DNA of 64,000 nt from a virus. Its lineage: Duplodnaviria; Caudoviricetes. Every line of letters starts with the position of its first letter. Within the stretch, counting starts at the first letter, position 1. Where the stretch lies: positions 1 through 64,000 of IMG/VR virus record IMGVR_UViG_2846856033_000001; one strand, 5' to 3'. The notes below the pieces were generated by a model. The model was not told the origin of the DNA. It did not search any database and saw only the letters and a list, made by a program, of their open reading frames with translations. The position numbers and the translations under genes were made by a program. Shown here in pieces: positions 3,678-21,400 of the stretch.

Positions 3678-5170
3678 CCGCGATTAATCCCCCTCGTGTC
3701 CTCTCCATGGAAGAATACCAGACGCAATGGAAACAACAAGGCTGGCAGTTGATCGTGATTGGTCCGACCGCTACCTGGCGCCAGGAGTGGGATGAATGGG
3801 CTGCTATCCGGGACATCGTTCAGAATGCTCTGGATGAAGCGGAAAGCTATAGCTTTGGCTATGATGACCAGGGATTGTGGATCAGTGATCACGGCCGGGG
3901 TATTGCCGTCGCCAACTTCCTGCTGGGTCCACCCAAGCTCAAGCCGGATTATGCCCGGGGCAAATTCGGCGAAGGAATGAAGATTGCCGCTCTGGCCTTG
4001 ATCCGAAAAGGGTATTCGGTCCATATTGAAACCGGCAACAAGGAAATCTGGATTATCTTCTTGGAACAGGAAGCCGAGGGTAAAGTCCAGACACTGGCAG
4101 CCTTATGGAGACCGGTCAGCACACCCAGGACCGGCACCCGGTTCCATATTATCGGTTACTTCGGCGAGGCCTTCGCCGACCGCTTCGCGGTCAATTTGTC
4201 CCGCAAGCAGATTGTAGCCGAGGCTCCCAGCCAGATTACTCAGCCGATAAGGCGCTTTAACCAGTTGATCCGGACTCCGGAAGGGCAGAAGTCGCGGATT
4301 TTTGTGCGGGACATTTATCTCCAGGACATCGAAAGCCAGTTTTCCTATAATTTGTGGTCGTTCGAGCTAAGTCCCGACCGTTTTGGCCCTAAAAAGGAGT
4401 CAGATCTATGGACTGACATGGGGCGGCTCTGGTCGTGCATTACCCGGCAGGATCTGCTGGAAACCTTTATGAAAATGGTGTCTCAGCCAGCTCAAATAAC
4501 TTGTCTGGAAAGCGAGAACCTCAGTCTGAGTTCCTGGTCATTGGGAACAGAACCGGTAACCGGCAAGAGCTATACAGAGTTCATCAAGGAAAATGCTTCT
4601 TCCTGGCGGGATGCCTGGCAGCAAGTGATGGGAGAGAATAAAATCATCCGCACTGATGACCGCTGGAACGGCACAGTAAAACATCTGGGTTATGAATCTA
4701 CCAGTGTAAGCTGGCATGTCCGGGATACCCTGGGAGAGGTAATTCTCACTGATGCTAATCTGGTCAAAGCTTCCCAGGAACGGCTGCGTGAAGCCGAGGT
4801 GATTCCAGATAATCAATTAAGTCACCGGCAACTGGCCCATCTCAAGTTAGCCCGAGCTATAACAAAGGACGTTCTGCCCTATGGTCCGGTCTCCGGAGTA
4901 TTGGCGGCCATCATTCCGGCCGCGTCGGACCGGGTGCGCACAGCCGGGATGTACAGCCGCATAACCCAGGAGATCTTTATCGGTGCCGACATGCTTGAGC
5001 ATGCTCAAACCACGATTGATACCGTGATACACGAGATTGCTCATCATACTTCGGGATCGGATGACCTGGAGGAACGACACGCCGCGGCCATGACTGAAGT
5101 GGCAGCCAAAGTAGTGAAAGAGACGGCTGGTGGCGCCTTTGATGATTTGCTTATGGAGGTGACCTGGTGA
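3671..5170 (+). CDS. GHKL-family ATPase with C-terminal HEXXH metallopeptidase motif
   Basis: GHKL boxes IRDIVQNALDE, DHGRGI, GKFGEGMK, GTRF; C-terminal VIHEIAHH. Confidence 0.75.
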   Translation: MVTAINPPRVLSMEEYQTQWKQQGWQLIVIGPTATWRQEWDEWAAIRDIVQNALDEAESYSFGYDDQGLWISDHGRGIAVANFLLGPPKLKPDYARGKFGEGMKIAALALIRKGYSVHIETGNKEIWIIFLEQEAEGKVQTLAALWRPVSTPRTGTRFHIIGYFGEAFADRFAVNLSRKQIVAEAPSQITQPIRRFNQLIRTPEGQKSRIFVRDIYLQDIESQFSYNLWSFELSPDRFGPKKESDLWTDMGRLWSCITRQDLLETFMKMVSQPAQITCLESENLSLSSWSLGTEPVTGKSYTEFIKENASSWRDAWQQVMGENKIIRTDDRWNGTVKHLGYESTSVSWHVRDTLGEVILTDANLVKASQERLREAEVIPDNQLSHRQLAHLKLARAITKDVLPYGPVSGVLAAIIPAASDRVRTAGMYSRITQEIFIGADMLEHAQTTIDTVIHEIAHHTSGSDDLEERHAAAMTEVAAKVVKETAGGAFDDLLMEVTW

Positions 5171-6693
5171 GATACCAAACTCAGCCTTATGTGATTTTAT
5201 CTGACGGGACTGTCAGGGCTATGTCTGTTCCCTCAAATCTTAATACAGTGATCAGTTTCGGACAGGCAATGCTTTTCATGATATTTGTTGCCGGGCTGAT
5301 TAAAGCGCTTGTATCAGAATCTGATGAACCGCAATCTACTAATCTGAAGTTGCTTCCCCGGAACATACCCGCGAAACAAAAAACTGAACTGGAGGATCTG
5401 GTAATCTCTTTGAGAGATGCGCCTACTGAAGAAGATCGGATTTTCATCAAGTTAACCGCTCCTCGGAAAGTGATGGAACAATACCGAAGCCTGTCTTTAC
5501 AACAGATCCGAAATATCGAACAGCGGTACTCACCAAAGTCAGGTTCTTCACCATATCAAGCCGCGACATTGAACGGTGATACTATTGCTGTACCATCGGA
5601 TTTAGCCTGGCTTCTCAATGATAATCAATCTTCGACAAGGCTGGATTATCTTCCGACGACAGAAGCCACTGAAAACAAGGTTGAAGGTATCCTTAAACAG
5701 CTCAAAGCCGGAGTCGAGAGTATCCAGCAGAGTGACCAATTCCGCCTGTTTTTGACTACCATGGGTAAATTTCATGACTACAGCATCGGCAATATGATAC
5801 TCATCATGCTGCAGAAACCCCAGGCCACCCATGTGGCGGGCTTCAATACCTGGAAGGAACTGGGCAGATGGGTTAAGTCCGGAGAAAAGGGCATCTCGAT
5901 TTTGGCCCCGGTATTTCCGCCGGCAGCCAGATGTGAAAAGTGCGGTTCCAAGTTGCCCCGAAACGCCAAATTCTGCTCGAAATGTGGTGAAAGTATCGAT
6001 TCCGGTGATGAAGGGGCGATCAGTCCCCGATATTTTCGGGTAGTTTATGTTTTCGATATCGGCCAGACCGAAGGGAAATCTTTGCCGGAGTTTGAAGTAC
6101 CGGCTTTAACTGGGGATGCTAACGAAGATTTGTTTAGTCAAGTTTTGGATCTGGCTAGAGAACAAGGGCTGACTGTTGGTTTTGAATCCAAACCGGAATT
6201 GGATCCGGATATAAAAGGCTACTATTCGGGAAAATCAATCTGGGTGCGCCCACAAGAATCCAGAGCCCAGCAACTAAAAACCCTGCTGCATGAGATGGCG
6301 CATTACTACACTGAAGGGGTTATGGGAATTCCTCGCAAGTACGCCGAAACCATTGCGGAAAGTGCGGCTTTCGCGGTTGGCGCTCATTACGGTTTCGACA
6401 GCGGAGTCCGTTCCTTCCCATATGTAGCGGTTTGGTCCCAGGAAAAGAAAGTCCTGGAAGAAAACCTGGCAATGATTCGAAAGGTCACCGGGAAGATCAT
6501 CGATAGCCTGGGACAAATGTCTCATACACATGAGCTTCCACATTGTATGCAAAACAATTCGCTGCAATTATATGGTGGTAGCCATTCTCTGATCTCTCCA
6601 CACATACAATGTAGTTCAATTTTCTTCTTTGATGTGATAAGGGCAGATCGGATAAAAAAGCAATATTCATTGTTTCTGGTGCCCATTTCTTGA
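5167..6693 (+). CDS. ardC: ArdC-like polyvalent protein (N-terminal TM, ArdC-N ssDNA-binding domain, double zinc ribbon, HEXXH peptidase); C-terminus replaced after about nt 6520
   Basis: FHDYSIGNMILIMLQKPQATHVAGFNTWKELGRWVKSGEKGISILAP and YVFDIGQTEG; CEKC/CSKC; LLHEMAHY...AES; tail after about aa 451 is AT-rich antisense of another ORF. Confidence 0.8.
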   Translation: MRYQTQPYVILSDGTVRAMSVPSNLNTVISFGQAMLFMIFVAGLIKALVSESDEPQSTNLKLLPRNIPAKQKTELEDLVISLRDAPTEEDRIFIKLTAPRKVMEQYRSLSLQQIRNIEQRYSPKSGSSPYQAATLNGDTIAVPSDLAWLLNDNQSSTRLDYLPTTEATENKVEGILKQLKAGVESIQQSDQFRLFLTTMGKFHDYSIGNMILIMLQKPQATHVAGFNTWKELGRWVKSGEKGISILAPVFPPAARCEKCGSKLPRNAKFCSKCGESIDSGDEGAISPRYFRVVYVFDIGQTEGKSLPEFEVPALTGDANEDLFSQVLDLAREQGLTVGFESKPELDPDIKGYYSGKSIWVRPQESRAQQLKTLLHEMAHYYTEGVMGIPRKYAETIAESAAFAVGAHYGFDSGVRSFPYVAVWSQEKKVLEENLAMIRKVTGKIIDSLGQMSHTHELPHCMQNNSLQLYGGSHSLISPHIQCSSIFFFDVIRADRIKKQYSLFLVPIS

Positions 6694-8945: not shown

Positions 8946-9155
8946 ATGATCGAATTATTAAAGAAGTGCCAGAAATGCCACTGCCTGAAGGAAACTGGAT
9001 GCTATGGAACACGCAAAGGTCACCGGACCGGCTACTGTGAAATCAAATTCCAGGAAACCCGCGGTAAGTGGATCGCCAATTTCCCCACTCCGGACAAAAT
9101 CGGCAATTCGTTTATCGACAAGTTTGCTGATGATTCGACCAAATACCACGTTTAA
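8946..9155 (+). CDS. Small Cys-rich hypothetical protein
   Basis: CQKCHCL...C...C; GGAGG upstream. Confidence 0.5.
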   Translation: MIELLKKCQKCHCLKETGCYGTRKGHRTGYCEIKFQETRGKWIANFPTPDKIGNSFIDKFADDSTKYHV

Positions 9156-9170
9156 GAGGAGGTAGCCGTC

Positions 9171-9461
9171 ATGGGCGCCCAACAGTTACCTATGAATCTC
9201 AATCCGAACGCGGAAAAAGATAACCAGGCCTTCATGGAAATGGTCGAAAAGAATCACCGGCTTGAAATGAAACACGGCTCCGCTTTCCGCCGGGTCTTCG
9301 GTGTTAGTCTGCACAAGTATCTGAGTATTGCTACCGGCTTCGATGTGGTCGCCTTTGACGATGAAATAATCAAGGCCGAAGACGGAGTTTCTATCGCCGA
9401 TGCAATCAAACGTGATTACGGCGATGACGCGCTGAACATGGTCCGAGAACTGATTAGTTAG
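9171..9461 (+). CDS. Small hypothetical protein
   Basis: GAGGAGG RBS; TGFDVVAFD...YG..A. Confidence 0.7.
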   Translation: MGAQQLPMNLNPNAEKDNQAFMEMVEKNHRLEMKHGSAFRRVFGVSLHKYLSIATGFDVVAFDDEIIKAEDGVSIADAIKRDYGDDALNMVRELIS

Positions 9462-9530
9462 GTCTTCAAATACTCCCGGCCGGGTTGGTCGCCGGCCGGT
9501 GAATAATGACCAAGAGGAGGTGAAAAACAA

Positions 9531-10916
9531 TTGGAAATACGAGTTGACAAACTACGCAAAAACCTAGCCCTTCTCCAGCCGGTAGTACCCCGCAATCCGT
9601 CCCTGAAGGTCCTCACTAACGTCTTATTCAGGGACGGCGCCATACGCGCGACTGACCTGGAGGTTGAAGTCTCGATCGCTATGCCCGAGATAACCGGTAC
9701 CGCTTTTCTTCTACCCTACCGCCAAGCGATGGAGGTCTTAAAGTTCGTGCCCGGAGACCTGGTACTAAGTATCGCGCCCCAGGACAAATCGGTTAAGCTA
9801 TCCTGGACCGGCGGCAGCGCCGCTTACCCGGTACCTCTATACAACGACTTCCCGGATAGTGCGCTGCATGCCCCAGAGTCTGAGGCCATCGTCAACGGTG
9901 ATGTCCTAACCGGCGCCATGATGGACGCCCTCCACTACGTCAAGACCGGGACTGAAACCAACACCGTACCGGGCAAGAAGAGAGGCTCCAGAACAGTCAA
10001 AAGTAAAGATGCGGGAGTAAGCGTTTTATCCGGTGTCGGCGTTATGCTCGATGAGCATGTCCAGATCTGCGGAGCTGACGGATACCGCGCATCCTATGAA
10101 TCAACCAGGCTCTCATGGCCGGTCAGGCAGACGATAATCGTCCCCCCTGATACCGTTGGAATACTCGATCTCCTGTGGCACAAAGAGCCAGGAAAACCGG
10201 CGCTGAGTAATGACTTCATCGCACAGATCACGGCGGCGCGTCCTCTTAAACTCGGTATCTGGGAAGGCCGTATGAGCGCCCAGTTCGCCGACATTACTCT
10301 GGTTAGCACCCTCATCACCGGCACCTATCCGGATGTCCTGGCTTTACTCAACGGCTTCAAAGAGCCGATCAAAGTCAAATTCTTTGGTCCCGACCTGGAA
10401 ACCGCCGCCCGTCGCCTTGCTGCAGTTGCCAAAGAATCTACCGAGATTACCTACCTGGTCTGGAATGAGGCCGCGATGACCGTCTCCGCCCAGTCCGCCG
10501 AGGTCGGCGAAGTCAGCGCAGAGATTACCGTGCTTGAAGGCAGCCAGCTCGGCCGCATTGCCCTTAAATGCAGCTACCTGCTGGATTACTTGGCCGGGAA
10601 AACCGGACTGATCACCATGGGGAACGCAGGCCAAGACTCACCCGCTCTCTTCCACTACGGCAGCCGCCCTATCGTGGCAATCATGCCGATGAAAGCAATC
10701 TGGGGCGACGAGCCTGTCGAAGAGGCCAAGGCTCAGGAAGCCCCCGCGGCCGCGGACGAAGAAGCTCCAAGTACCGCCGAGAACACTGAACCAGAGGCGG
10801 TAAATGAAGAAGAGACCGGCGAACCCGGCGATGAGCCGGAGGAGGTCGAAGAGACCGGCGCAGAAACAGTTAATAATCCTGAACCGGCGGCAGTTGGGCC
10901 GGAATCTGAAGAGTAA
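9531..10916 (+). CDS. dnaN: DNA polymerase III beta subunit (sliding clamp), element-encoded, with long acidic tail
   Basis: VVPRNPSLKVLTNVL, RATDLEV, GADGYR, LITGTYPD, YLLDYL, AIMPM are beta-clamp signatures; GGAGGTG RBS, TTG start. Confidence 0.85.
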   Translation: MEIRVDKLRKNLALLQPVVPRNPSLKVLTNVLFRDGAIRATDLEVEVSIAMPEITGTAFLLPYRQAMEVLKFVPGDLVLSIAPQDKSVKLSWTGGSAAYPVPLYNDFPDSALHAPESEAIVNGDVLTGAMMDALHYVKTGTETNTVPGKKRGSRTVKSKDAGVSVLSGVGVMLDEHVQICGADGYRASYESTRLSWPVRQTIIVPPDTVGILDLLWHKEPGKPALSNDFIAQITAARPLKLGIWEGRMSAQFADITLVSTLITGTYPDVLALLNGFKEPIKVKFFGPDLETAARRLAAVAKESTEITYLVWNEAAMTVSAQSAEVGEVSAEITVLEGSQLGRIALKCSYLLDYLAGKTGLITMGNAGQDSPALFHYGSRPIVAIMPMKAIWGDEPVEEAKAQEAPAAADEEAPSTAENTEPEAVNEEETGEPGDEPEEVEETGAETVNNPEPAAVGPESEE

Positions 10917-11050
10917 GGAGGCGCCTGAAAGAAAGAGAAAACTGAATAGTGCGAGTCGACCATCTTTGGGAGGAGCGGGAAGTGGGGACACAACCCCCCG
11001 TTCCGTCCCTGAGATGGCGGCTTATTTATTGACTAAAAAGGAGGCCAATC

Positions 11051-11365
11051 GTGGTACAAGCTAATAGACTCGTGAAATTCCCTACCGGACAAATGGCCCT
11101 CACCGCCGGAGTTAACGGCCTGGTGGCCGAGAATGAGGACTTTGCCAAATTCGTAACCGAGAGCCTTGGCCGGCACCTTAAGGGCGATTGGGGTGATGTG
11201 TGCGTTGAGGATAAAAAGGCTAATGACGAAGCAGTGAAAGCGGGAGACCGGATGCTCTCCGCCTATAACGATGACCGTTTCCCTAAGAACGGGAACGCGA
11301 CGATCTGGATTATCACAGAGGGAGACCGGTCGGTAACTACCGTACTCTTCCCGGATGAGTACTAA
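11051..11365 (+). CDS. Conserved plasmid/ICE hypothetical protein (GDWG...LLPDEY type)
   Basis: RHLKGDWGDV...RMLSAY...IWIITEGDRSVTTVLFPDEY. Confidence 0.8.
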   Translation: MVQANRLVKFPTGQMALTAGVNGLVAENEDFAKFVTESLGRHLKGDWGDVCVEDKKANDEAVKAGDRMLSAYNDDRFPKNGNATIWIITEGDRSVTTVLFPDEY

Positions 11366-11383
11366 ATTCAAGGAGGTGCAGAT

Positions 11384-11563
11384 ATGAAATTCTGCCCTGA
11401 TTGCGGCAAACCGGTACACCTTACAAGCACAATAACCTCTGAGGTTATCCTGGCGGATGAAAAACGAATTCAATTTGAGTATGCCTGCCCTGATGACCGC
11501 CACAGATGGCAGGAGCTCATCGACCCGTACGGCGGCTATACCATCTTCCGGGAGGCAATCTAG
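11384..11563 (+). CDS. 59-aa zinc-ribbon protein (below the ORF-track cutoff)
   Basis: AGGAGGTG RBS; MKFCPDCGKPV...YACPDDRHRW. Confidence 0.7.
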   Translation: MKFCPDCGKPVHLTSTITSEVILADEKRIQFEYACPDDRHRWQELIDPYGGYTIFREAI

Positions 11564-11766
11564 TGGCCCGGGTTATAACGCTGGAAAAACACCTGTTATC
11601 AAACGGCGATACTGCCTGTGTTAAAAGACTGGGACGCAAATACTACTTTGAGCGCCTGCATCCCAGTTTTACGACGCCCCCGGAGACATCTCCGAACACG
11701 AGCAAAAATGAAGCCATGAAACTGTTGGAGGACTGCCTGAAGGCAGACGTTCTGGAGAGTGATTAA
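11563..11766 (+). CDS. Small hypothetical protein
   Basis: GTG overlapping the upstream TAG; GGGAGG RBS. Confidence 0.55.
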   Translation: MARVITLEKHLLSNGDTACVKRLGRKYYFERLHPSFTTPPETSPNTSKNEAMKLLEDCLKADVLESD

Positions 11767-11991
11767 AACGCTCTCTTGACAAGATGCAGCGCGGAAATCA
11801 ATAAGCTTTTGGTTGTAGATGAGAAACACGGTGTTCTGGCCAGCGGTGAGGACGGGAAACTTCAGGCGATCGATTACTCGGAATATAGCATCCACAGCTT
11901 CTCCTGTCCAAAATGCGTAGACGAAATCTACACCCTCCGCAATCGCCCGGACCTGGCCACCAAGTTCCTAAGAACCAGCAGGATGTTATGA
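11759..11991 (+). pseudogene. Probably frameshifted zinc-ribbon gene
   Basis: GGAG + GTG 11759 gives MIKTLS*; one extra base near 11778 would give MIKTLSCTRC...SCPKC with paired CxxC motifs. Confidence 0.45.
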
Positions 11992-12102
11992 TCCGTTGAC
12001 TCTGACGACGAGCTGCCGAAATAGCTTCATAAGCGGCTTATAAGCCGCTCGGCGCCAGGGATGAACGGATGATCCGTTCAAGCAAATTATTGGAGGTAAA
12101 TC

Positions 12103-12570
12103 ATGACCACAGATGGAAAGCCCGTGGCCAATACTGGCCCAGCACCCATACCCGGCCAGAAGCCGGACACTACGCCTGCTCCGCCGCCTATTCCGGAGCC
12201 TAAGAAACGCATATTCGTCGTGGATGGTCGCCAATTTCCGGATCCGAACGAAAAGATGACCGTCGAAGAAGTTCGTCAGCATATGACGGATTTTTTCCCA
12301 GAATTAGCCAATGCTGAAACCGAAACCGCTAAAAGCGGGAACGACGATGTGTACACGTTCAAAAAACGTGTAGGAACGAAAGGTAGCTCGCTTAAGGTCT
12401 ATGCAGTCGGGGCCGTCTGGGGTGGCTGCATTGAGGAAGTATCAGGCTTTTTGACCGTAGAAAAGGCTAAGACTCAACTGGACAGCATACACCAAAGATG
12501 GGGACTTAATCCTCAGCACGAAGCCGAAAGTAATCATGCGGTAAGTATTGTACCTATTGAGGTAGGATAA
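12103..12570 (+). CDS. PRTRC protein C-like ubiquitin-like protein with Pro-rich leader and C-terminal extension
   Basis: RIFVVDGRQFPDPNEKMTVEEVR...FFPELANA...YTFKKRVGTKG, followed by 61 more residues. Confidence 0.8.
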   Translation: MTTDGKPVANTGPAPIPGQKPDTTPAPPPIPEPKKRIFVVDGRQFPDPNEKMTVEEVRQHMTDFFPELANAETETAKSGNDDVYTFKKRVGTKGSSLKVYAVGAVWGGCIEEVSGFLTVEKAKTQLDSIHQRWGLNPQHEAESNHAVSIVPIEVG

Positions 12571-12571
12571 C

Positions 12572-12814
12572 GTGTCTGCCGAGTCTGAAGACATCGAACA
12601 AGTCGTCAAGGCCATCCGTACAGTCCCCCCCAAAAGCCTGCTCTTGATTGAGCTCGCCAATTCAATCCCGGTGGTCAATGGAGTCTTCGACTACCAGGCG
12701 CTCGCGAACAAGAAACCGGAAATCGAGCTGGCTATCGTCGAAGCTAAGACCTACGGCTCATATACTCTGGTGACAGTGGAGGCTTTAGCCGGCTTGAAGG
12801 GGGTGACAGGCTAA
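12572..12814 (+). CDS. Small helical hypothetical protein within the Ubl cassette
   Basis: GAGGTAGG RBS, GTG start, coupled to the next gene (TAATG). Confidence 0.65.
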   Translation: MSAESEDIEQVVKAIRTVPPKSLLLIELANSIPVVNGVFDYQALANKKPEIELAIVEAKTYGSYTLVTVEALAGLKGVTG

Positions 12815-14124
12815 TGTGGGACCTTGATACACTCATTAGACAAAACAATCAAGCCGCTCTCGATTGGATGATGCGCAGCCGGAAAGTTGAGCAGGTCCAG
12901 GAGCCGAAGCCGGAAAACTGGGCGCTTTCACTGCTCGCAGACAAAATGAAGGCCGGGCCCATCAACATCGAGACGCTCATGGCCTACTTCACCGACATCA
13001 AGAGCATCGAGAAATTCGTCGCCCTGATTCGTAAATTCCTGCCCGACTCCGAGAGCGAGATAATGTCGCAAAACAGGAACCGGCGCGTATATCGATTTTG
13101 TACTCTCTTCAGTAAAAAGTACTATCCGATCCCGCGCCGGGCCTATGACTGGGATATCGACAAATTTACCGGTAACATGCCGGTTGACCTGATGGGGATG
13201 TCCTATTCCGCTTATCATGAGCTGGATATGCGCGTCGGCTATCTCCTGCTGCTTTCGCTTATCGTTTACCCCTACGAAGGCGACGAGAGAGACGAATACG
13301 ATGACGCGGTGCCGTTTAATCCTCTGGATTACCCGGCCAAGAAATTCAAACCCTCCCGCGAGGACGAGAACTGGTTAGCAGACCTGGTTAGGTCGCTCGC
13401 GGATGGTGGCAAGTGGATCGCCCCGATGGGATTCACAGTAGTAAAGATTAATAACAGTAAAATCCGACTGAAAGAGGCGGAGAATACCCCTGTAGTAAAG
13501 GAGACCATCGCCCGCACCTTGATGATCGCCAAGAGAATAGGAATAGAGTCGGAGGTCATCGCCGGCAGAACAGCCCGGGATAAATTAGCAGCCGCCAAAG
13601 TCCCCCTCCTCGATAAGCTTCAGAATCTTGTCGGGTCTGCCCTGGCAAACCGTGTTCCAAGGGCTGGCTGGCAACCAGACCAGCTCCATAAAATGACTGA
13701 CGGGACAAAATACGAAGGCTGCGGAGAATTCGCGGATTACGCCTGTGGTATTACTGGGTGCGAGGTTCTTGACTACGCTTATGACGGGGTAGAGTACGTC
13801 GAAGGGGAATCCGAGCCCTACTTCCGATGGGGAGATTATAACGTCAACCAGTTAACCAATCAGTGGCCAAAAGTCGAAGTAATCCGCGCGAAAATCGACC
13901 ACATCGTTGAATGGCTCGAAGCGAATGAGGAGGTTAACTTCCAGGAACTGTTAGAATTCCTGCTCTCTCAACCTCAGCCGAAAAAGGAAAAACTTCCGGC
14001 CGAACGAGAACACCATTGTAATTTGGACACTATAACCCAGGAAGAGGCCGAGGAAAAAAACGAAGACCACCTCGAGGAGGACAGATATGACCAATTCACC
14101 TTACGACAAGAAGCCCCTATTTAA
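12814..14124 (+). CDS. Hypothetical protein at the position of PRTRC protein F
   Basis: 436-aa ORF between Ubl and E2; positional inference only. Confidence 0.55.
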   Translation: MWDLDTLIRQNNQAALDWMMRSRKVEQVQEPKPENWALSLLADKMKAGPINIETLMAYFTDIKSIEKFVALIRKFLPDSESEIMSQNRNRRVYRFCTLFSKKYYPIPRRAYDWDIDKFTGNMPVDLMGMSYSAYHELDMRVGYLLLLSLIVYPYEGDERDEYDDAVPFNPLDYPAKKFKPSREDENWLADLVRSLADGGKWIAPMGFTVVKINNSKIRLKEAENTPVVKETIARTLMIAKRIGIESEVIAGRTARDKLAAAKVPLLDKLQNLVGSALANRVPRAGWQPDQLHKMTDGTKYEGCGEFADYACGITGCEVLDYAYDGVEYVEGESEPYFRWGDYNVNQLTNQWPKVEVIRAKIDHIVEWLEANEEVNFQELLEFLLSQPQPKKEKLPAEREHHCNLDTITQEEAEEKNEDHLEEDRYDQFTLRQEAPI

Positions 14125-14788
14125 CTGGGCGATACCCGCAGAGCTTGGGATCCCACCGGACCCGATACGGCTTAGACTGGACTTTCATCACCAGGCTGTT
14201 GAACTCACGGATTTTGAAGGAGACACGGTCACAACCAAAGTGGTATCCGCGCACGATATCGCGGAAGCCCTGGCCAATGAAATCTCATTCAACTCCGGCC
14301 TGCTGCCGGAAAATACGCTCTGGTGGCGGAATAGCCGCAGCGGCTCGATCATCGCCTTATACGAAAAGCCGCGAACCCGCAAAGTGGCCCTTCAGGAAGA
14401 TATAAACAAGCCGGCGCAGCGCTTCACTATCCCTCTGCCGGGACTGGTCTTCTTATGCTCTCCGGGCCGGCCGCCGTGGGTTTACGCGGTCAAGAAAAAA
14501 CCGACCAAAGAAGCAGACAGGGTATTTAAGGCGCCGCTGCTCAACGTCTTCGCTAACGGCCTCACCTGTCCCGGCAGCCATCATTATCCGGAGCGCGTCG
14601 CTGATGTGGTTGAAAGCTTTTTTGTCAGCTTCTTCAGCAATACCGCCGATCTAGCGAACAGGTCGAAACGGTTCCCGAATAGTGTTGTTCAGCTCTGGAA
14701 GTTCCTGGATAAAAAGACCTCGTACCCCTGCGAAGACCTCGTTGAGCACGGCAGCGTAGAAGACCTGCTCAAAATGGAAATGCGTTAG
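14087..14788 (+). CDS. Prokaryotic E2 family D protein (PRTRC protein B-like)
   Basis: SGLLPENTLWW, IPLPGLVF, APLLNVFANGLTCPG (candidate catalytic Cys), FFVSFFS. Confidence 0.8.
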   Translation: MTNSPYDKKPLFNWAIPAELGIPPDPIRLRLDFHHQAVELTDFEGDTVTTKVVSAHDIAEALANEISFNSGLLPENTLWWRNSRSGSIIALYEKPRTRKVALQEDINKPAQRFTIPLPGLVFLCSPGRPPWVYAVKKKPTKEADRVFKAPLLNVFANGLTCPGSHHYPERVADVVESFFVSFFSNTADLANRSKRFPNSVVQLWKFLDKKTSYPCEDLVEHGSVEDLLKMEMR

Positions 14789-15484
14789 ATGTCACAGCCA
14801 ATTGTGGGTTATCTACTTCACCGTTTCGGCTGCATTGAGGGCGACATGGGCCTCGGGTACAACTACATCCTTTCGGGAAATGGAATATTTATCTCGGCTC
14901 AAAACCAATACCTTGATGCTTGCATACCTGTAGCTGGCTGCCAGATACGGGGATTGACCGAGACCGAAGCGCATGTCAAATTAATCCACGGCAAAATCCC
15001 CCAGGCACTGTTTGACCTGGCACTGAACACCGCTCTGGTCAAAAAGGAGAAGGAGGTTTACTTCGCCCTGACATGGGAAAATGGATACCATCTTTTCTTA
15101 ACCGGACAGCAAGGTGAGGTGGGACAGGTAAAATACGCCGTCCTGGATATTACGGTGATGGACATACACTCTCACGGTAAAATCGGTACGCGGTTCAGCC
15201 ACACCGATGATAAAGACGAACAGGGCTTCAAACTAAGCTGCCTGGTCGGAGATCTCGATAAAGTCCCCCGGGTAGGCGTTCGAATCGGCGTCTACGGAAA
15301 CTTCTTAGCCCTACCCTGGGGCGATGTCTTTAGTGGCAGTTTAACCGGCGCGGTCGACGTCCTAAAAGATTATGAAGAGGAGGAGAAAGCCGAAATTGAA
15401 TTATCGAGTACAAATCAGTTGCAACAAGATCTTAGTTGTGGGGGCTGGTGGAACCGGTTCTTTGGTAGTCGATGGATTATGTAG
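14789..15484 (+). CDS. JAB/MPN-domain isopeptidase (PRTRC protein A-like)
   Basis: E...DIHSHG....FSHTDDKDE JAMM motif; YILSGNGIF and RIGVYGNF. Confidence 0.85.
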   Translation: MSQPIVGYLLHRFGCIEGDMGLGYNYILSGNGIFISAQNQYLDACIPVAGCQIRGLTETEAHVKLIHGKIPQALFDLALNTALVKKEKEVYFALTWENGYHLFLTGQQGEVGQVKYAVLDITVMDIHSHGKIGTRFSHTDDKDEQGFKLSCLVGDLDKVPRVGVRIGVYGNFLALPWGDVFSGSLTGAVDVLKDYEEEEKAEIELSSTNQLQQDLSCGGWWNRFFGSRWIM

Positions 15485-16211
15485 ACTCCTGGTCGGCCAC
15501 GAAGAGGCTCCGCTATTCATTATCGACCCGGACCGAGTAGAAGCACAGAACGTCCGCCGGCAGAATTTCTACCTCGGCGATATCGGTAAATTCAAATCCC
15601 AAGTACTTGCTGAGAGATATAGCCGGCTATATGGGCGCCAGATCGCCTACAGTGTCTACCCTTTCGAAAGGGACATGGTGGAGCACGGCAACGGCCAATT
15701 CCATTCTGAGCTCGCTGTAAACGCCCTGATCATCGGCTGCGTAGACAACTACATGGCCCGCCGGAGCATTGCCGAAAGCATCAAAAGCCTGAACTGGTGG
15801 CTGGACGCCGGCAATAGTTACCACTCCGGCCAGGTCCTGTTCGGCAACGTGGAAAGTTTAGAATCCATGGTGAACACGTTTGATGACAAGCTTGGCGTAG
15901 TGAAACATTTGCCAATGCCGTCTGTCCAGATGCCAGAGCTCCTGATGCCCTCCCCCTTGCCCGTAAAACAGCAGGATTGTGCCGATGCTGTCGAGGACAA
16001 CCTTCAAAGCCCGGTGATCAACCACGCCATGGCTACTCTGGTACTTGAATTCGTCCACCGGATCATCACCAACAAGCTCGAGTGGATGGGAGCCTACCTG
16101 GATATGGAAGCCGGGACCCTCAAGACCGTACCCATTAACGAGGTGACCGTCTCCCGGATGTTATCAATGCAGGTTAATGACCTGAAGTATTGCCCAAATA
16201 GAAAATTTTAG
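15396..16211 (+). CDS. ThiF/E1-like adenylyltransferase (PRTRC ThiF-like)
   Basis: VVGAGGTGS, DPDRVEAQNVRRQNF, IGCVDN, WLDAGN, DCADA...QSPVIN; TTG start after GGAGGAG. Confidence 0.9.
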   Translation: MNYRVQISCNKILVVGAGGTGSLVVDGLCRLLVGHEEAPLFIIDPDRVEAQNVRRQNFYLGDIGKFKSQVLAERYSRLYGRQIAYSVYPFERDMVEHGNGQFHSELAVNALIIGCVDNYMARRSIAESIKSLNWWLDAGNSYHSGQVLFGNVESLESMVNTFDDKLGVVKHLPMPSVQMPELLMPSPLPVKQQDCADAVEDNLQSPVINHAMATLVLEFVHRIITNKLEWMGAYLDMEAGTLKTVPINEVTVSRMLSMQVNDLKYCPNRKF

Positions 16212-16221
16212 GAGGTAAATT

Positions 16222-16794
16222 ATGGGACCAGTAGACAATCAAGAAGAAAAATCCCTTGTGACAACGACTCCGCCCATCACCGAATTAAAGCCGGAAACAG
16301 CGGCGGCCGTTGTCGAAGTCGCGGAGAAGGCCGCGGAAATGATTAAAGCGGACATCCCACCCGCAGCGGCGCCGGTCGAGTTAATTCCGGTCGAAAACGC
16401 GCCGACCCACCCGAACGCTCAGACATTGGAGAGGGAACCGGAGACCGGCGAGGTTAAACCGGCCGGAGTAAAACCGGTGCTGAAAGTCGCCCCGAAAATC
16501 AAGATCGTCATTAATCACTACGCCGGAGCGGCCCTGGTCGGAGTCCAGCGAGGAGACGCTGACCCGATATTTACATTGGTAAATGGTTCGATCAAGGACG
16601 CCGTCGCCAGGATTCCCGACTTACTGGTCAGCGCCAGTGAAATGTGGGCGAAGACCACTAGGAATCCGGTCGCAGTCCTGCCCACCAAACCGGCGACCAC
16701 ATCCTCTTCGACTAAGGCATACACGCCGCCCAAGCCTTCCGCCCCGGCGAAACCGGCCGCGCCCAAGCCCGGCGAAATGAAATCCATGATGTAA
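16222..16794 (+). CDS. Hypothetical protein with Pro/Ala/Lys-rich tails (possible PRTRC protein E analogue)
   Basis: AGGAGGT RBS; small central domain flanked by low-complexity segments. Confidence 0.55.
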   Translation: MGPVDNQEEKSLVTTTPPITELKPETAAAVVEVAEKAAEMIKADIPPAAAPVELIPVENAPTHPNAQTLEREPETGEVKPAGVKPVLKVAPKIKIVINHYAGAALVGVQRGDADPIFTLVNGSIKDAVARIPDLLVSASEMWAKTTRNPVAVLPTKPATTSSSTKAYTPPKPSAPAKPAAPKPGEMKSMM

Positions 16795-16838
16795 AATACC
16801 GGCAATTACCGGTAAATAACGGAATATGGAGGTAAAGT

Positions 16839-17750
16839 ATGGTAATGCAAGCAAGGTATCTTTCCTGCGCGGAAACCGCCAAGCTCGTCCGCGCCGCCCT
16901 GGCCAAGAATTTCCCCGGCGTGAAATTCAGCGTTAGGTCAAGCGAATACGCCGGCGGCGCCTCGATCGACGTCCGGTGGACCCTGGGCCCGACTGTCAAA
17001 GAGGTCGACGACATAGCTGGCCAGTACGAGTCCGCTTCTTTCGACGGCATGATCGACATGGAAACCCACTATTCCCACTGGCTGATGCTGGATGGCTCTA
17101 CCCGGATTGAAAGCGGCCCCGGGACCGAGGGCTCTAGGGGTGTTATTCCTGCGATTGAACCCCAGCCGCGGCCTGAAGGCGCGGAGCTCGTCCACTTTGG
17201 CGCCCATTACGTTCAGTGCGCACGGAAACTACGCGAGAATTACGAAGATGAAATGAAATTCCGCACACAGGTCGCCCAGGACATGAGTATCCTGCAGAAG
17301 GTCGCCTATACCGGCCCCAACACAATTCACCTTTTCGGAGATGGTGACACGGAGCAGGTCGATCAACACGCCTGGCGTTTGATAAATCAAACATCCTTCA
17401 AGCCAGGCGAAGAATACGCCGGCGTGCGCTACTCAACTGAGGAAGAGCGCAACTCCGAAGGCTGGGATCCCTGGGCGGTCTTCGTGATCGTCAAGAAATC
17501 GCCAGCGCCGGAGATCGATGGTGGTATTCTCCATCCCGGTACGCTGAACGTCAATCCCGGCATTAAAATCCGAGAAAATGAAGTCCATAAGGGAATAGAG
17601 ATCGAATTCCCTAGTAAGCCGCCGGCGCTGGTGATAAATGAGATGAAGGCTAACGGCTGGCGCTGGTCACATACCGGCGGGTTCTGGTATAACAAGCAGA
17701 CCCCCGATAATAAGAAGTTCGCTCTGGGATTGCAAAATGGTAATCAGTAA
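16839..17750 (+). CDS. LPD29-domain (polyvalent-protein-associated) protein
   Basis: ETAKLVRAALAKNFPGVKFSVRS..YAGGASIDVRW..GPT...FDGMID; C-terminal GIEIEFPSKP...MKANGWRWS. Confidence 0.8.
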   Translation: MVMQARYLSCAETAKLVRAALAKNFPGVKFSVRSSEYAGGASIDVRWTLGPTVKEVDDIAGQYESASFDGMIDMETHYSHWLMLDGSTRIESGPGTEGSRGVIPAIEPQPRPEGAELVHFGAHYVQCARKLRENYEDEMKFRTQVAQDMSILQKVAYTGPNTIHLFGDGDTEQVDQHAWRLINQTSFKPGEEYAGVRYSTEEERNSEGWDPWAVFVIVKKSPAPEIDGGILHPGTLNVNPGIKIRENEVHKGIEIEFPSKPPALVINEMKANGWRWSHTGGFWYNKQTPDNKKFALGLQNGNQ

Positions 17751-17940
17751 AAACTTCGGTAAATACCAATATACCTTCTACGGCCCAGCGGAAACCGAGT
17801 CGCAGGCCGATGGCTTCGTAGAGTCTCTCCGACAAAAGGGGTTCGCTGCCCGATGGACCAAGGCGAGTATCTACCCAGGCCATTACATCTACCAAATCTG
17901 GCAAAAAGACAAAAAGCATACGGGTAAAAGTGGTGCATAG
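17737..17940 (+). CDS. Small hypothetical protein
   Basis: Overlaps the LPD29 stop; co-oriented. Confidence 0.5.
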   Translation: MVISKNFGKYQYTFYGPAETESQADGFVESLRQKGFAARWTKASIYPGHYIYQIWQKDKKHTGKSGA

Positions 17941-18364
17941 AAAAACCTCTCACAATCCTTTCGTGGTTCGCTCGACATATGCCTTTACCGATATGTTTGG
18001 CGAGACTCCAAAATTACACTGGCGAATAAACCCGATAGATCCGGACACGTTGAAGATCTTGCCTCTTGTAGACGACCAGTTCGAAACCCTGTAAGAGTTC
18101 AAATACTGGCTGGAGGATAACTAATGACTTATGAATTGCGTGTCCATCTTGGCGGCAGTTGCCGAAAAGTGGAAAAACAAAAAAAGGCTTTTAAAGATGC
18201 TGGTATCCCACTCTGGCCGCGACCATGGACCGAAGGGGCATTATACCAATATCAGTGCAAGGATTCCTGATACCCCGGAAGCCAGGGAACTATTAAAGAA
18301 GGTCGGCGCTACTGTCTGCCGCGACCATGGTTTTAGAGAATCAAAAATGAAGAGGATGTTATAA
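17933..18364 (+). pseudogene. Two small disrupted genes
   Basis: 17933-18124 has an in-frame TAA at 18092 but the frame continues to a TAATG junction; ATG 18124 (GGAGG RBS) reads MTYELRVHLGG... and needs a 1-nt shift near 18207 to join SGRDHGPKGHY...KRML. Confidence 0.4.
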
Positions 18365-18480
18365 ATAGTCGGCATGACTAAGTATTAGCTTGGACTCAAC
18401 TGCATTGGTGTCTAAAGATAAGATAACAAGGAGGCAGGAAAGACTTTTTCATCTTAAGGAGCTATCCGTTTTTGTTTGCT

Positions 18481-21400
18481 TTAATCTAACCCTTCCAGAA
18501 CGCGCCAAACCTTGCGGTAGACCTCTCCTTGGCGTTGACCAAGGGCTTGGCTCCATACTCCAGCATCTAGAGTACGTAACCTTACCCTAACGCTAGGCAA
18601 TGACTCGTTAATAATACTACCCATGGAAGTAGCAAGTGATGTTGCCGCAGTCCTCGGGACGCCCAATAATCGGAGGGTAATTGCGGCATCGTCATTAACG
18701 CCGTAATATACACGCGAGGGAAGATTATTTAAGATCTTGAGTTGTTCTTCGGACAAACCAGATCCTGTAATTGATAATAAAGCTCCTAACCCCCATGCTG
18801 CTGTCTGCGTCAACTTGCCGAAAAGGTTTTGGCCGCACTTTGTCATTGCCTTTGTGATATCATTATCTGCGTCCATAAAATAACGACTGGCTATCTCTGA
18901 AACGGGGACGCCATTTACCCAGTCTTTCACAATCAAAGCTAGTTTTCTCCCATCCGGCGACGTTCCTCCAGTAGCTGCTTTAAGGTTTTCGCGCAATTCG
19001 GGAACTCTTAACAGGACGCCCATCATTCGTTGCAAATCTGGACTATTGTGTTGGAATAGCGACTCTGAATTCCATGATTCTGCCCGGATTCCCTGATCAT
19101 CTACCTGACTGAGGACAGATCGTATGCTTTGCAAGGAGAAACCGGTACTATCAACAAGCTTAAGAGGTTGGCCCGGTTCTTCAAGGTATTGTGTATAGCT
19201 ACGAATTCCGTCTAGCAAGCGATTTGCCAATGTTGAATTTTGGCTTCGTAACTTCTCGAAGCCAAGTGTACCGCGGAGGATTTGTTCGATTTTATCTGCA
19301 AAGTCTTCCGGTTTACCCATTTGGCGATAAGTGTGAGCCAAATACTGCACGAAACAAGACCATTCGGGATACTTATAAACAATCCCTCCGAGGTCGCTGA
19401 GCATTTCTTGGGCTTCCGTTGCAAGTAGGACAAGAGCAGAATTAAGGTCTCCTGCCTGCTTGTTGATAAACTGACGAAGGGTTACAGCCTTATCTCTGGT
19501 TTCCGCCACCAAAGCTACAATTCCTAGACTTCCTTGTCCAATTCTTCCAGCCCGCCCTGCAATGTTCCAGAAGTCTTCAGGGGGCATATCTTCGGGTCCC
19601 TGTTCGCTAGGGTATTGATGCGAAGCCATCACTACCCCTGTAACAGGGAAATTCACCCCTTGTGCGATAGTGGTAGTTGCTACGAGAAACCTTAGCTCCT
19701 TCTCTTCAAATAACCACTCCATGAGTGCTCGAACATCGTCTGATAGCCCCGCGTGATGTACACCTACACCGTAGGAAAGGAGGTCTATCAATGGGAAATC
19801 CGTTCCAAACTCTAACTCTAAAAACTGCTTAACAAGAGCGATTCTATCAGTTGAAATAGTCGCCTTGTTAGCATCGATTCGGAACTTATCTGCTAAATTC
19901 CATACCCAGTCGGGTCGAGTGTGCATTACAATTACCGGCCCTCTTTTCTGCAAATGCTGTGCAGTGACGGCCGCCAATGCACTTTGGTTGGACACCTTTG
20001 TGTATGTTGCTGCTATATTTACATTCTTCGAGAGAGTCAACAAATCATCGTTAACAAGGGTATTCCGTGTGGTATGTATAGTTTCCATATGTAGCTCATA
20101 GTCGAAACTGTGATGATTTAATGCAGTTCCTCGTTCTGCCTGCACGATTCCAATGATTCGGTCATTGGGCTGCCAATCAAGTGCCAAACTAATATCATCG
20201 GAATTCTGGCCTCCAAGCCAACGGGCGATTTCACGTGCGTTGTTGATAAATGGGGTCAACAACAAGAACTGAGCCCGTTGACACTCGTTGTTGATCGTCG
20301 CAAGCAACAATTCTAGCTTTAGTCCCCTTCGAGGTGCCTGAATATTATGGGCTTCATCCACAATAACAAGCGTCAACGGACGGCCAATCTCTGCCTCACA
20401 CCCTTTCCGAAGCATCAAATCCAATTTTTCTGGTGTGGTGACCAGTATACGGAATTCCTGAGCAGGGTCCTTCTGGTTTAACAATCCCGTTTCAATACTA
20501 TCAATTTCCAAAGCCGGACTTACTTGTTCAACCGTGATTTTTAAAGGCTCAAAATCTCTCCGTAGTTGTCGCGCGACTTGATTCACTAGAGTTCGGGTTG
20601 GTGCTAAATAGGCTACCCAACCTCGTTCATGCTCAAACTGATTCAGAGCTTGAAGAATCCGGAATTGTGCTATAAGAGTCTTGCCACTCGATGTTGGCAA
20701 GCTTACCACAACCGCTCGACGGCTGGAACCGAGCAAACCCTTTTCAACAAGAGCTCGTCGTTGTGGGGGTAATACATCAAAGATGGCGTGTTCACCACGT
20801 CCCCTAGCAACAATGGTTTTGACAAATTCTGTCACACGTGAGTTAACTGATCGAGTGACCGTCCATATTGAATTATCTGCCATCTGCGATGAACACGCAG
20901 AAAGAAGCCTAGCTAATGATTCTAAGTCTAGTAGCTGGGCTTGCTCGCAAACAGCAGTGACCCTATCGAAATGCATCTCAAGCATTTGGTGGATCTGGTA
21001 ATTCCCATCCACGACGCCATCAGTAATGTAATAGGCAAATACCTCAGCAGCCTTGGCCAGGTGGTAAAGACCAATAAGTTCAAGAGCAGAAGCCTTAGAG
21101 TGAATGGACTCCTGTTGATTCAGATACTTCTTTTCGAAGGTTGCCTGTGAATTGCGCAATGCTGAAATTCGCTCCAGTATAGCATCACGGTCTGTCCACC
21201 CGTTCTTTCGAATTAACCTAAGCCAAATATCAAGAATGGTAGCCCAAGTACGTTTGCTCCAATCTTCAGACGAAAATGGAAGTTCGGGCCATTCTTCTTC
21301 ACGAAGCCATCTTGCCGCATCTGATCCTTTATCACCCAACACTGCAAGCACTCCGGCACGCAATAAAAACTTGGCGGTTTCGATGGGATCTTCTGGGCGA

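Follow-up and report, generated by a model that had tools for sequence, protein, structure and literature searches.

The DNA that we investigated is a 64-kb window (the term always refers to this whole stretch) that forms the first part of an 86,285-bp virus record, IMGVR_UViG_2846856033_000001, classed as a provirus. Between positions 12103 and 16794, on the plus strand, it carries what looks like a working operon for the conjugation of a ubiquitin-like protein (Ubl). On balance, we favour the reading that this is a conjugation operon of the 6d/PRTRC class on an integrative element and that it acts at a sliding clamp loaded on DNA. The carrier of the cassette is probably an integrative mobile element of a Chloroflexota bacterium. 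The initial annotation of this region had described a complete PRTRC-like cassette on mobile DNA; its parts indeed lie on the plus strand where they were placed, and the class of the record agrees with the mobile location. Not contained in that description were the extension of the Ubl into a precursor, the fusions of its small partner p80 to Ubl proteins in other genomes, the fixed partnership with a DnaN-like clamp, and the clamp-binding-like tail that the low-complexity (lc) protein has in relatives.

The genes between 9.5 and 17.8 kb on the plus strand form a run of co-oriented, closely packed genes. The junctions from the Ubl gene through p80, p436, E2, JAB and E1 to lc190 range from -113 to +10 nucleotides, which bears out the tight coupling noted initially, and GGAGG-type ribosome-binding sites are found at most starts. 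The E2-like protein (14087-14788, plus strand) matches Prok-E2_D (PF14460, E 1.4e-21) and PRTRC_B (60.5 bits), and its Cys161, located in NGLTCPG, is invariant in all 11 aligned sequences. The JAB/JAMM metallopeptidase (14789-15484, plus strand; 231 residues) matches PRTRC_A (E 3.1e-16, 59.5 bits) and, below the cut-off, Prok-JAB (E 3.6e-4). It is composed of an N-terminal alpha+beta domain, a part with HSH at 127-129 that is followed after seven residues by S137 and after two more by D140, and a C-terminal tail whose coding sequence overlaps the E1 gene; Glu89 lies upstream of the motif, and all ten aligned sequences share E89, H127, H129, S137 and D140. The E1-like ThiF adenylyltransferase (PRTRC_ThiF, E 3.8e-36, 124.6 bits; ThiF PF00899, E 1.2e-16) has GAGGTG at 24-29, RRQ at 62-64, CVDN at 123-126 and Cys203 in DCADA, and its glycine loop, RQ, CVDN and Cys203 are likewise invariant in 10 of 10 sequences. 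The residues to which attention had first been drawn, namely the cysteine of the E2, the intact HxH..S..D of the JAB, and the GxGGxG and DCADA cysteine of the E1, are therefore not only present but conserved. The longest open reading frame (ORF) for the E1 begins at 15372 on the plus strand; however, the likely start is the TTG at 15396 (15396-16211), because this codon is preceded by GGAGGAG and gives a match to the N-termini of relatives.

Related loci were collected by scanning genomes and metagenomes with a profile of p436, which returned 11 and 80 loci, respectively. In all 91 of these the visible genes follow the order Ubl, p80, p436, E2, JAB-E1 or E1-JAB, lc, with the E1-JAB arrangement in at least 14. 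Since the same gene order recurs in every related locus fetched, the cassette is above chance. Judged from the sequence, the operon is a complete, intact-looking Ubl/E2/JAB/E1 cassette of the 6d/PRTRC class.

The Ubl appears to be made as a precursor. Its gene (12103-12570, plus strand) encodes 155 residues, which match Pfam Prok_Ub over residues 35-92 (E 3.2e-13; 49.7 bits against a cut-off of 25) and PRTRC_C with 45.1 bits. Residues 1-34 are proline-rich, residues 35-94 form the beta-grasp domain ending in KKRVGTKG, and residues 95-155 form an extra domain. The Ubl had been annotated as ending in VGTKG; the GTKG is present, at 91-94, but no stop follows G94 and the frame runs for 61 more codons up to 12570. 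Contigs of a permafrost DNA run and of wetland RNA libraries span the junction between GTKG and the extension without insertions or deletions. An extension of the same type is kept in a 97%-identical relative (L016) and, in a more distant form, in L014.

A search of the 91 loci with a hidden Markov model (HMM) gave 76 Ubl ORFs; one of them lacks the motif and was dropped. In the other 75 the invariant [RK][RK]xGxKG is followed by no residue (39 ORFs), by one (19), two (8), three (2) or five residues (1), or by 22-74 residues (6). The long tails are mutually unrelated in kind. They are Zn-ribbon-like in L060, L061, L083 and P0127, consist of another domain in P0124, and correspond to p80 by fusion in P0125, P0126 and cyanobacterial plasmid proteins. 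The extension of the window Ubl has a stand-alone homologue (L075:2212-2475, phmmer 1.8e-7). A sequence pattern in which the residues behind an invariant glycine range from none to an entire domain is that of ubiquitin-type precursors. From this variability behind an invariant glycine we infer that the JAB of the operon trims the Ubl precursor. The gap between the Ubl and p80 genes is a variable spot that holds small unrelated ORFs (L034:8348-10058; L011:1169-2176; L033, L048, L050, L053); in L034 the gap between p80 and p436 is variable as well, and the insertions in this locus include an HNH endonuclease. The C-terminal fusions of the Ubl probably arise at the Ubl-p80 spot through loss of the stop codon.

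The two genes between Ubl and E2 encode p80 (12572-12814, plus strand), a helical protein of 80 residues with 85 homologous ORFs in the 91 loci, and p436 (12814-14124, plus strand; 436 residues). Profile searches for each gene, part of the check proposed with the initial annotation, yielded families for the Ubl, E2, JAB and E1 and none for p80 and p436, both of which are without a match in Pfam, NCBIfam, PHROGs and PADLOC. The window p80 is 35-37% identical to the C-terminal halves of the Ubl fusions P0125 and P0126, in which p80 stands behind the GTKG of the Ubl, and it aligns with the tails of cyanobacterial Ubl proteins. The p436 profile retrieved 551 clusters at E<=1e-3 from 1.84 billion representatives. 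Because most of these clusters, 250-330 residues long, match query positions 1-160 and 260-395 only, we read p436 as an all-alpha core with an alpha/beta domain inserted at about 170-255; in L014 this domain is located at the C-terminus instead. The core is all-alpha in the AlphaFold2 models of both the full protein (predicted local distance difference test, pLDDT, 82.1) and a natural homologue of 276 residues (P0166; pLDDT 91.8). None of 228 homologues with about 46-93% identity has a Pfam domain, and the few source names among them are Dehalococcoidales, Acidobacteriota and subsurface metagenome.

None of 44 representatives of the p436 family matches any NCBIfam model, PRTRC_F included. The best hit of a sequence-profile search of the PDB with p436 had an E of 0.68, the ESM Atlas search gave no usable match, and Foldseek found no PDB match at E<=0.001 for either model of the family. 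Nothing convincing was found in the PDB by a VIA structure search with the p436 models either. Its best matches were a designed binder on the inserted domain (Z 4.8) and the helical part of the Lon N-terminal domain (Z 5.1; root-mean-square deviation 3.8 over 82 residues), both of which we judged to be common arrangements. The CE-clan peptidases SseL, CidB and SENP2/5 appeared in weak Foldseek rows (TM<=0.12) and were rejected as chance matches since the core of p436 is all-alpha. The near-invariant positions in an alignment of 71 p436 sequences are mostly F, W, P, G and Y, and no catalytic signature was recognised in the protein. As the conserved residues are mostly hydrophobic, a non-enzymatic part for p80 and p436 seems preferable, and we read p436 as a putative scaffold or adaptor rather than an enzyme; an enzymatic role was suggested for the helical protein of 6d operons in Table 1 of Iyer et al. 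2006 (PMC1779556).

The best NCBIfam match of the Ubl, E2, JAB and E1 is in each case a PRTRC model. The scores are 124.6 bits against a curated cut-off of 144.75 for ThiF (TIGR03736), 59.5 against 101.8 for protein A, 60.5 against 131.45 for protein B and 45.1 against 45.95 for protein C. Since every model scores below its curated cut-off, we call the cassette a divergent variant of the 6d/PRTRC class and not a curated PRTRC member. At E<=1, none of the PRTRC proteins D, E and F (TIGR03739, 03741, 03742) has a match anywhere in the record of 86,285 bp. PRTRC ParB (TIGR03734) has none at E<=0.001, in agreement with the annotation of a cassette without an adjacent ParB; the only ParB_N signal in the record is a weak N-terminal match, below the cut-off, on a DNA methylase (58468-59892). 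The core of a 6d operon is present in the window: Prok_Ub, Prok-E2_D and ThiF are found above the Pfam cut-offs, the JAB is found through PRTRC_A, G94 and Cys161 are conserved, and p436, with its all-alpha core, lies between Ubl and E2 in the position of the 6d helical protein. In addition, p436 is weakly similar to a 248-residue protein at the equal position on an Anabaena plasmid (BLASTP E 0.011, a single pair).

The place of ParB appears to be taken by a sliding clamp. Upstream of the Ubl gene, at 9531-10916 on the plus strand, a DnaN-like protein of 461 residues is encoded that matches phrog_947, 'DNA polymerase processivity factor', over residues 1-388 (E 1e-24). To TIGR00663 (dnaN) it aligns over residues 163-387 only (E 4.4e-12), and its 45.6 bits lie below the cut-off of 137.65. 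It has an acidic C-terminal tail of 69 residues, 26 of them D or E, and IMPMK at 384-388. These features are those of a divergent paralogue, not of the housekeeping DnaN. Adjacency of a clamp gene could be assessed for 36 of 44 lc ORFs, those with at least 1400 nucleotides visible behind lc, and in 34 of the 36 loci a clamp adjoins the cassette. The clamp gene starts at most 600 nucleotides after lc in 28 loci and, by a looser criterion, follows it in two more (L007, L018). Four loci (L051, L061, L065, L074) have it upstream of the Ubl, as in the window, and in the remaining two (L072, L086) the upstream side lies outside the visible sequence. The DnaN-like clamp gene is thus best regarded as part of the module.

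The last gene of the cassette, lc190 (16222-16794, plus strand), has 44 homologous ORFs. Members of the family have a conserved core of about 60 residues (residues 89-155 in the window protein) and a proline-rich linker; the last residues are also conserved in most relatives, reading for example AQPSFF, AQPSMF, AQPTMF or AQPRFF. After removal of three incomplete ORFs, 31 of 41 lc proteins terminate in a clamp-binding-like tail, [QR]xx[FMLW]F, which no more than one further residue may follow. Among the other ORFs of the same loci that encode 90 residues or more, 7 of 1351 do so. The tail is found in 30 of 32 loci that have the clamp gene downstream and in none of the eight loci of a subclade with a long lc protein. 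In this subclade (L051, L055, L061, L065, L066, L072, L074, L086) lc measures 234-422 residues and has an extra N-terminal domain; a conserved C-terminal domain ending in KIQRRPK replaces the tail. The loci have their DnaN-like gene upstream and also encode Ku and an ATP-dependent ligase close by.

A similar tail is present in cyanobacteria, where the first gene of the cassette (96-160 residues, partly low-complexity) ends in QLTLF, QLSLF or QLNLF on four of four plasmids; two further plasmids (L096, L099) are outside this count as the gene lies beyond the stretch or the locus is rearranged. On two cyanobacterial plasmids (L001, L097) dnaN is located two genes after ThiF and is followed by the gene for DNA polymerase III gamma/tau. 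The consensus of clamp-binding motifs is given in the consulted part of PMC12309361 as QL[S/D]LF, more generally QxxLF, with positions 1, 4 and 5 critical. The lc protein can be equated with PRTRC_E by position only, since hhalign gave the lc profile a probability below 1% both against protein E of plasmid pWW53 and against the cyanobacterial first gene; no PRTRC_E match was found among 25 lc homologues.

Taking the gene content, the intact motifs, the conserved synteny, the pattern of Ubl tails and the clamp-binding-like motif of the relatives together, we infer a pathway whose biochemical steps, docking to the clamp and choice of target are all predictions. The Ubl would be synthesised as a precursor of 155 residues, and the JAB would cut it after Gly94, the last residue of KKRVGTKG, to release the 61-residue extension and expose the C-terminal glycine. 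The E1 would adenylate this glycine and take the Ubl onto Cys203, from where it would be handed to Cys161 of the E2 and then to lysines of the target; the JAB may also be able to reverse the mark. In this pathway p80 and p436 would be obligatory, co-translated accessory subunits that function as scaffolds or specificity factors and not as enzymes. The classical ParB of PRTRC systems would have been replaced in this lineage by the DnaN-like sliding clamp, and the machinery would act at the DNA-loaded clamp, in replication or maintenance of the excised element. Action at the clamp is suggested by the presence of the DnaN-like protein in ParB's place and by the clamp-binding-type tail of lc in most relatives.

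A more specific version of this pathway, which we offer tentatively and regard as doubtful, is by analogy with the ubiquitylation and SUMOylation of PCNA. The system would then be the counterpart on mobile elements, in which the motif-bearing adaptor brings the Ubl, E1, E2 and JAB to the beta-clamp paralogue of the element, and reversible tagging of the clamp or replisome switches the replication of the excised element. ParB is itself a DNA-sliding clamp. If the PCNA-like version were correct, the swap from ParB to DnaN between branches would mean that the 6d/PRTRC class acts on DNA-encircling clamps generally.

An alternative explanation is that the operon serves maintenance of the element independently of the clamp, through addiction or through control of excision or transfer, with the Ubl attached to host or element proteins and the DnaN-like gene merely co-inherited. 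Opposing modifying and de-modifying activities were proposed as an addiction or protection system by Iyer et al. 2006 (PMC1779556, in the text consulted), and both the lc190 of the window and the long-lc subclade are without a clamp-binding-like tail. However, this explanation seems unlikely given that lc and the clamp gene are direct neighbours, in this order, in 28-30 of 36 loci, that the tail tracks the arrangement of the genes, and that the cyanobacterial versions carry the textbook QLxLF. If the operon instead provided anti-phage defence in the manner of Bil, infection would trigger conjugation of the Ubl to a phage protein, and its location would be due to the clustering of defence genes on mobile elements. 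The sister classes CBASS (6b, with Cap2/Cap3), Bil (6c) and Bub (6e) do conjugate proteins, and some of these systems protect against phage (parts consulted of the Chambers 2023 preprint and of Gong 2024); moreover, a defence island that includes PDC-M23A/B, BrxL, a WYL regulator and LlaJI-type restriction-modification genes begins 0.7 kb downstream. Nevertheless, the cassette and the island are on opposite strands and differ in base composition (52-54% guanine plus cytosine, GC, with positive AT skew, versus 41-48% GC). Only the E1 matches PADLOC-DB, through generic E1-E2 models (best E 1.7e-11), whereas the Ubl, p80, p436, E2, JAB and lc do not. The cassettes of the relatives are found amid integrase and replication-type genes, fixed to a clamp paralogue, and not in defence islands, which makes a role in defence quite unlikely.

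A third possibility, that the Ubl is only a sulfur carrier similar to ThiS or MoaD, with the E1 making a thiocarboxylate, the JAB trimming the precursor and no protein being conjugated, is very improbable. The E1 also matches ThiF and MoeB models (E 1.8e-12 to 1e-3), and C-terminal tails trimmed by JAMM peptidases are known in sulfur-carrier systems too (QbsE/QbsD, CysO/Mec). However, the best match of the E1 is of the PRTRC type, and with its 271-279 residues it contains a single ThiF adenylation domain detected by Pfam (residues 15-157) and no rhodanese domain. In addition, an E2-like protein with an invariant cysteine is present in every locus, and no cofactor-biosynthesis family was found among the cassette proteins or among 118 flanking ORFs of at least 150 residues scanned in 11 of the longer loci.

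Several points also weigh against the clamp-directed conjugation that we favour. The trimming of sulfur carriers just mentioned is one of them, as tails cut off by a JAMM peptidase are found in systems of that kind too. The lc190 of the window ends in KPGEMKSMM, without the clamp-binding-like tail, and no frameshifted clamp-binding motif is found behind it in any frame; the tether to the clamp is thus not universal, and for the window copy the sequence does not support it. In the relatives that have the tail, position 4 of the motif is F or M, where the consensus has L. All four PRTRC matches fall below the curated NCBIfam cut-offs, and conjugation by members of the 6d class is a prediction. 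All 91 loci were recruited through p436 and form one clade, and many are near-duplicates (e.g., L005/L006/L041 and L008/L030/L031), so that counts among them are not counts of independent events. Contigs from RNA libraries can contain DNA and are not proof of transcription. Finally, the cassette may be part of the 44-86 kb prophage, or of a distinct element in tandem with it.

The record falls into blocks. The first, at 1-18 kb on the plus strand with 50-54% GC, contains an ImmA/HTH pair, a Gp3-like recombination directionality factor, DnaD-like and ArdC-like genes, and the cassette. The second, at 18.4-43.6 kb on the minus strand and mostly of 41-50% GC, is the defence island (18481-43649). 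It encodes PDC-M23B/A (a Hachiman-like helicase, PADLOC 1402 bits, plus partner), a BrxL Lon-like protease, a weak PglZ-like match, DUF2779, a WYL/WCX regulator, a serine recombinase, VWA, WapI-like and macro-domain proteins, LlaJI-type restriction (RE_LlaJI and an AAA_5 ATPase) and two methylases. The third, at 44-86 kb, is a phage replication and structural module. Within it, the genes at 57498-62509 encode an S-adenosylmethionine synthetase, a fusion of a ParB_N-like domain with an N6_N4 methylase, and an 874-residue fusion of a PAPS reductase with a C5-methylase, which is probably an anti-restriction or DNA-modification set. The Gp3-like factor (1845-2795; Pfam E 1.1e-49) lies in the left part of the record, and a 527-residue ORF near the right end (record positions 83437-85020) might be a large serine integrase matching it; the location of the two bears on whether all 86 kb are a single element. 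A search for direct repeats that could represent att sites in 1-46000 gave nothing convincing, and a promoter and terminator scan of 9000-18600 returned numbers of sites not above those of shuffled sequences.

Other genes close to the cassette also have conserved counterparts. Downstream of the module a protein of 303 residues with an LPD29 domain is encoded (16839-17750, plus strand; PF18847, E 6.5e-21), the C-terminus of which resembles a primase PHROG (E 2.5e-4); homologues are located downstream of the module in L013, L034, L044 and L054. Among several small ORFs between the DnaN-like gene and the Ubl, a conserved accessory protein of 104 residues (11051-11365, plus strand) has no match in Pfam, NCBIfam or PHROG. 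Homologues of it with 50-58% identity are found close to the cassette; 15 ORFs of this family were detected by an HMM across the 91 loci. Two other ORFs contain motifs that resemble clamp-binding motifs: the ArdC-like protein of 508 residues (5167-6693) has QYSLF at residues 499-503, five residues before the C-terminus, and the ORF of 96 residues directly upstream of the DnaN-like gene (9171-9461) has QLPMNL at residues 5-10. These are the only two ORFs with a match to the clamp motif on the plus strand of 1-18.5 kb. The ArdC-like protein has two further internal matches, at residues 33 and 191, and the motifs of both ORFs could be due to chance.

Eight of the 11 genome loci are from Chloroflexota metagenome-assembled genomes (MAGs), six from Dehalococcoidia and two from Chloroflexia. 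A 3.8-kb contig with one of the loci (L009) has been assigned to a Heimdallarchaeota MAG, and other loci to Omnitrophota and Spirochaetota MAGs; the host range beyond Chloroflexota is uncertain, as short contigs may be mis-binned. The 118 flanking ORFs include tyrosine integrases (seven loci), large serine recombinases (two loci), HNH endonucleases, HTH_17 proteins, Ku (three loci) and ATP-dependent ligase (two loci), followed by ordinary host genes after about 15 kb, and no capsid, terminase or type IV secretion gene is among them. In L014 and L022 the mobile part seems to be only about 15 kb. In L014, which is from a Chloroflexia MAG, the large serine recombinase adjoins a ComM/Mg-chelatase-like gene whose ORF is only 355 residues there (L014:365-3104), and this element may be inserted in that gene. 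Among plasmids, the E2 has matches in 38 records, all below 60% identity, of which 30 are typed as conjugative; the longest matches are cyanobacterial, and those in Pseudomonas are annotated as PRTRC protein B. The E2 had no tblastn match among 50,697 phage records, and neither scans of viral contigs with the E2 and with the p436 profile nor the E. coli genomes searched gave a relative. Many studies have yielded metagenome runs, from soil, permafrost, peat, groundwater and wetland, with DNA nearly identical to 9531-17750. Much of this region is represented, at 90-99% identity, in contigs of one permafrost DNA run and of three wetland RNA libraries, and the contigs of the RNA libraries include parts of the DnaN-like, Ubl/p80, p436, E1, lc and LPD29 genes.

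Five classes of bacterial operons with E1, E2 and JAB genes were defined in 2006, and conjugation has been reported for 6b (CBASS), 6c (Bil) and 6e (Bub), according to the parts of the literature consulted; class 6a was encountered only in the name of an NCBIfam model, 'anti-phage 6A-MBL', and the texts consulted on CBASS, Bil and Bub make no mention of 6d. In a search that did not include subscription journals, no experimental study of the 6d/PRTRC class was found, only mentions of PRTRC at the level of annotation, which fits the initial remark that PRTRC cassettes lack a defined target. The variant described here adds to this class a precursor Ubl, the fixed partners p80 and p436 without a recognisable fold, and a conserved sliding-clamp partner. 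What 6d/PRTRC systems do can thereby be approached through a processing site predicted to follow Gly94, through the catalytic residues identified, through two obligatory partners, and through a clamp neighbour to which most relatives add a docking-type peptide. Were the link to the clamp true, control of a DNA clamp by ubiquitin-type modification would no longer count as an invention of eukaryotes, and the operon would reveal how replication is managed in small integrative elements that are widespread in soil, peat, permafrost and groundwater metagenomes.

Eukaryotic ubiquitin is made as a fusion and freed by a peptidase, and the ring-shaped sliding clamp of eukaryotes is a platform or target of ubiquitin-type modification. 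The likeness of the window operon to ubiquitin precursors and to the ubiquitylation and SUMOylation of PCNA is one of analogy only: a beta-clamp is compared with PCNA without a claim of clamp homology, and modification of the clamp by the window operon is hypothetical. With PRTRC systems (TIGR03734-03742; e.g., on the Pseudomonas putida plasmid pWW53) the window shares the core and its order, Ubl (protein C), a large protein, E2 (B), JAB (A) and a ThiF-type E1, as well as the location on mobile DNA. The window differs in the additional p80 gene, the C-terminal extension of the Ubl and the DnaN-like clamp in place of ParB; moreover, p436 is not similar to the 424-residue protein at the equal position on pWW53 (hhalign probability 0.07%).

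A close match is operon type 6d as described by Iyer, Burroughs and Aravind (2006; PMC1779556). According to the text consulted, such an operon encodes an E1-like and an E2-like protein, a small Ubl whose terminal glycine is conserved, a JAB with an alpha+beta domain at its N-terminus, and a rapidly evolving, largely alpha-helical protein, and the window matches it. The distribution is sporadic and mobile in both, and the Anabaena and Nostoc plasmid versions listed there under 6d are 25-34% identical to the window cassette; the beta plasmid of Nostoc sp. PCC 7120, a genetically tractable strain, has a homologous cassette. However, the histidine after the E2 cysteine described there as 'absolutely conserved' and the 'strictly conserved' arginine and tryptophan of the N-terminal half of the JAB are not invariant in our small alignment (10-11 sequences). 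The window E2 has H165 and H166, and the column four residues after the cysteine is histidine in seven of eight sequences of the Chloroflexota type, whereas pWW53 and the two cyanobacterial sequences lack it there; the N-terminal half of the JAB has no invariant tryptophan. The clamp link, p80 and the precursor extensions of the Ubl are features of the window variant, and the consulted text of PMC1779556 does not mention them.

Type II Bil (6C) and Bub (6E) systems resemble the window in having the E1, E2, JAB or deubiquitinase and Ubl as separate proteins, and in a conserved Ubl glycine followed by non-conserved residues that require removal (Chambers 2023 preprint; Gong 2024; parts consulted). 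They differ in the family of the E2, which is Prok-E2_D in the window, and the short window E1 with one ThiF adenylation domain stands against the tandem IAD and AAD plus CYS domain described for Bil in the consulted part of the Chambers 2023 preprint. The same source gives up to nine residues behind the conserved Ubl glycine of Type II Bil, whereas the tails of window-type Ubls reach 74 residues or whole domains. The genomic context differs too, as cassettes of the window type lie among replication genes rather than defence genes.

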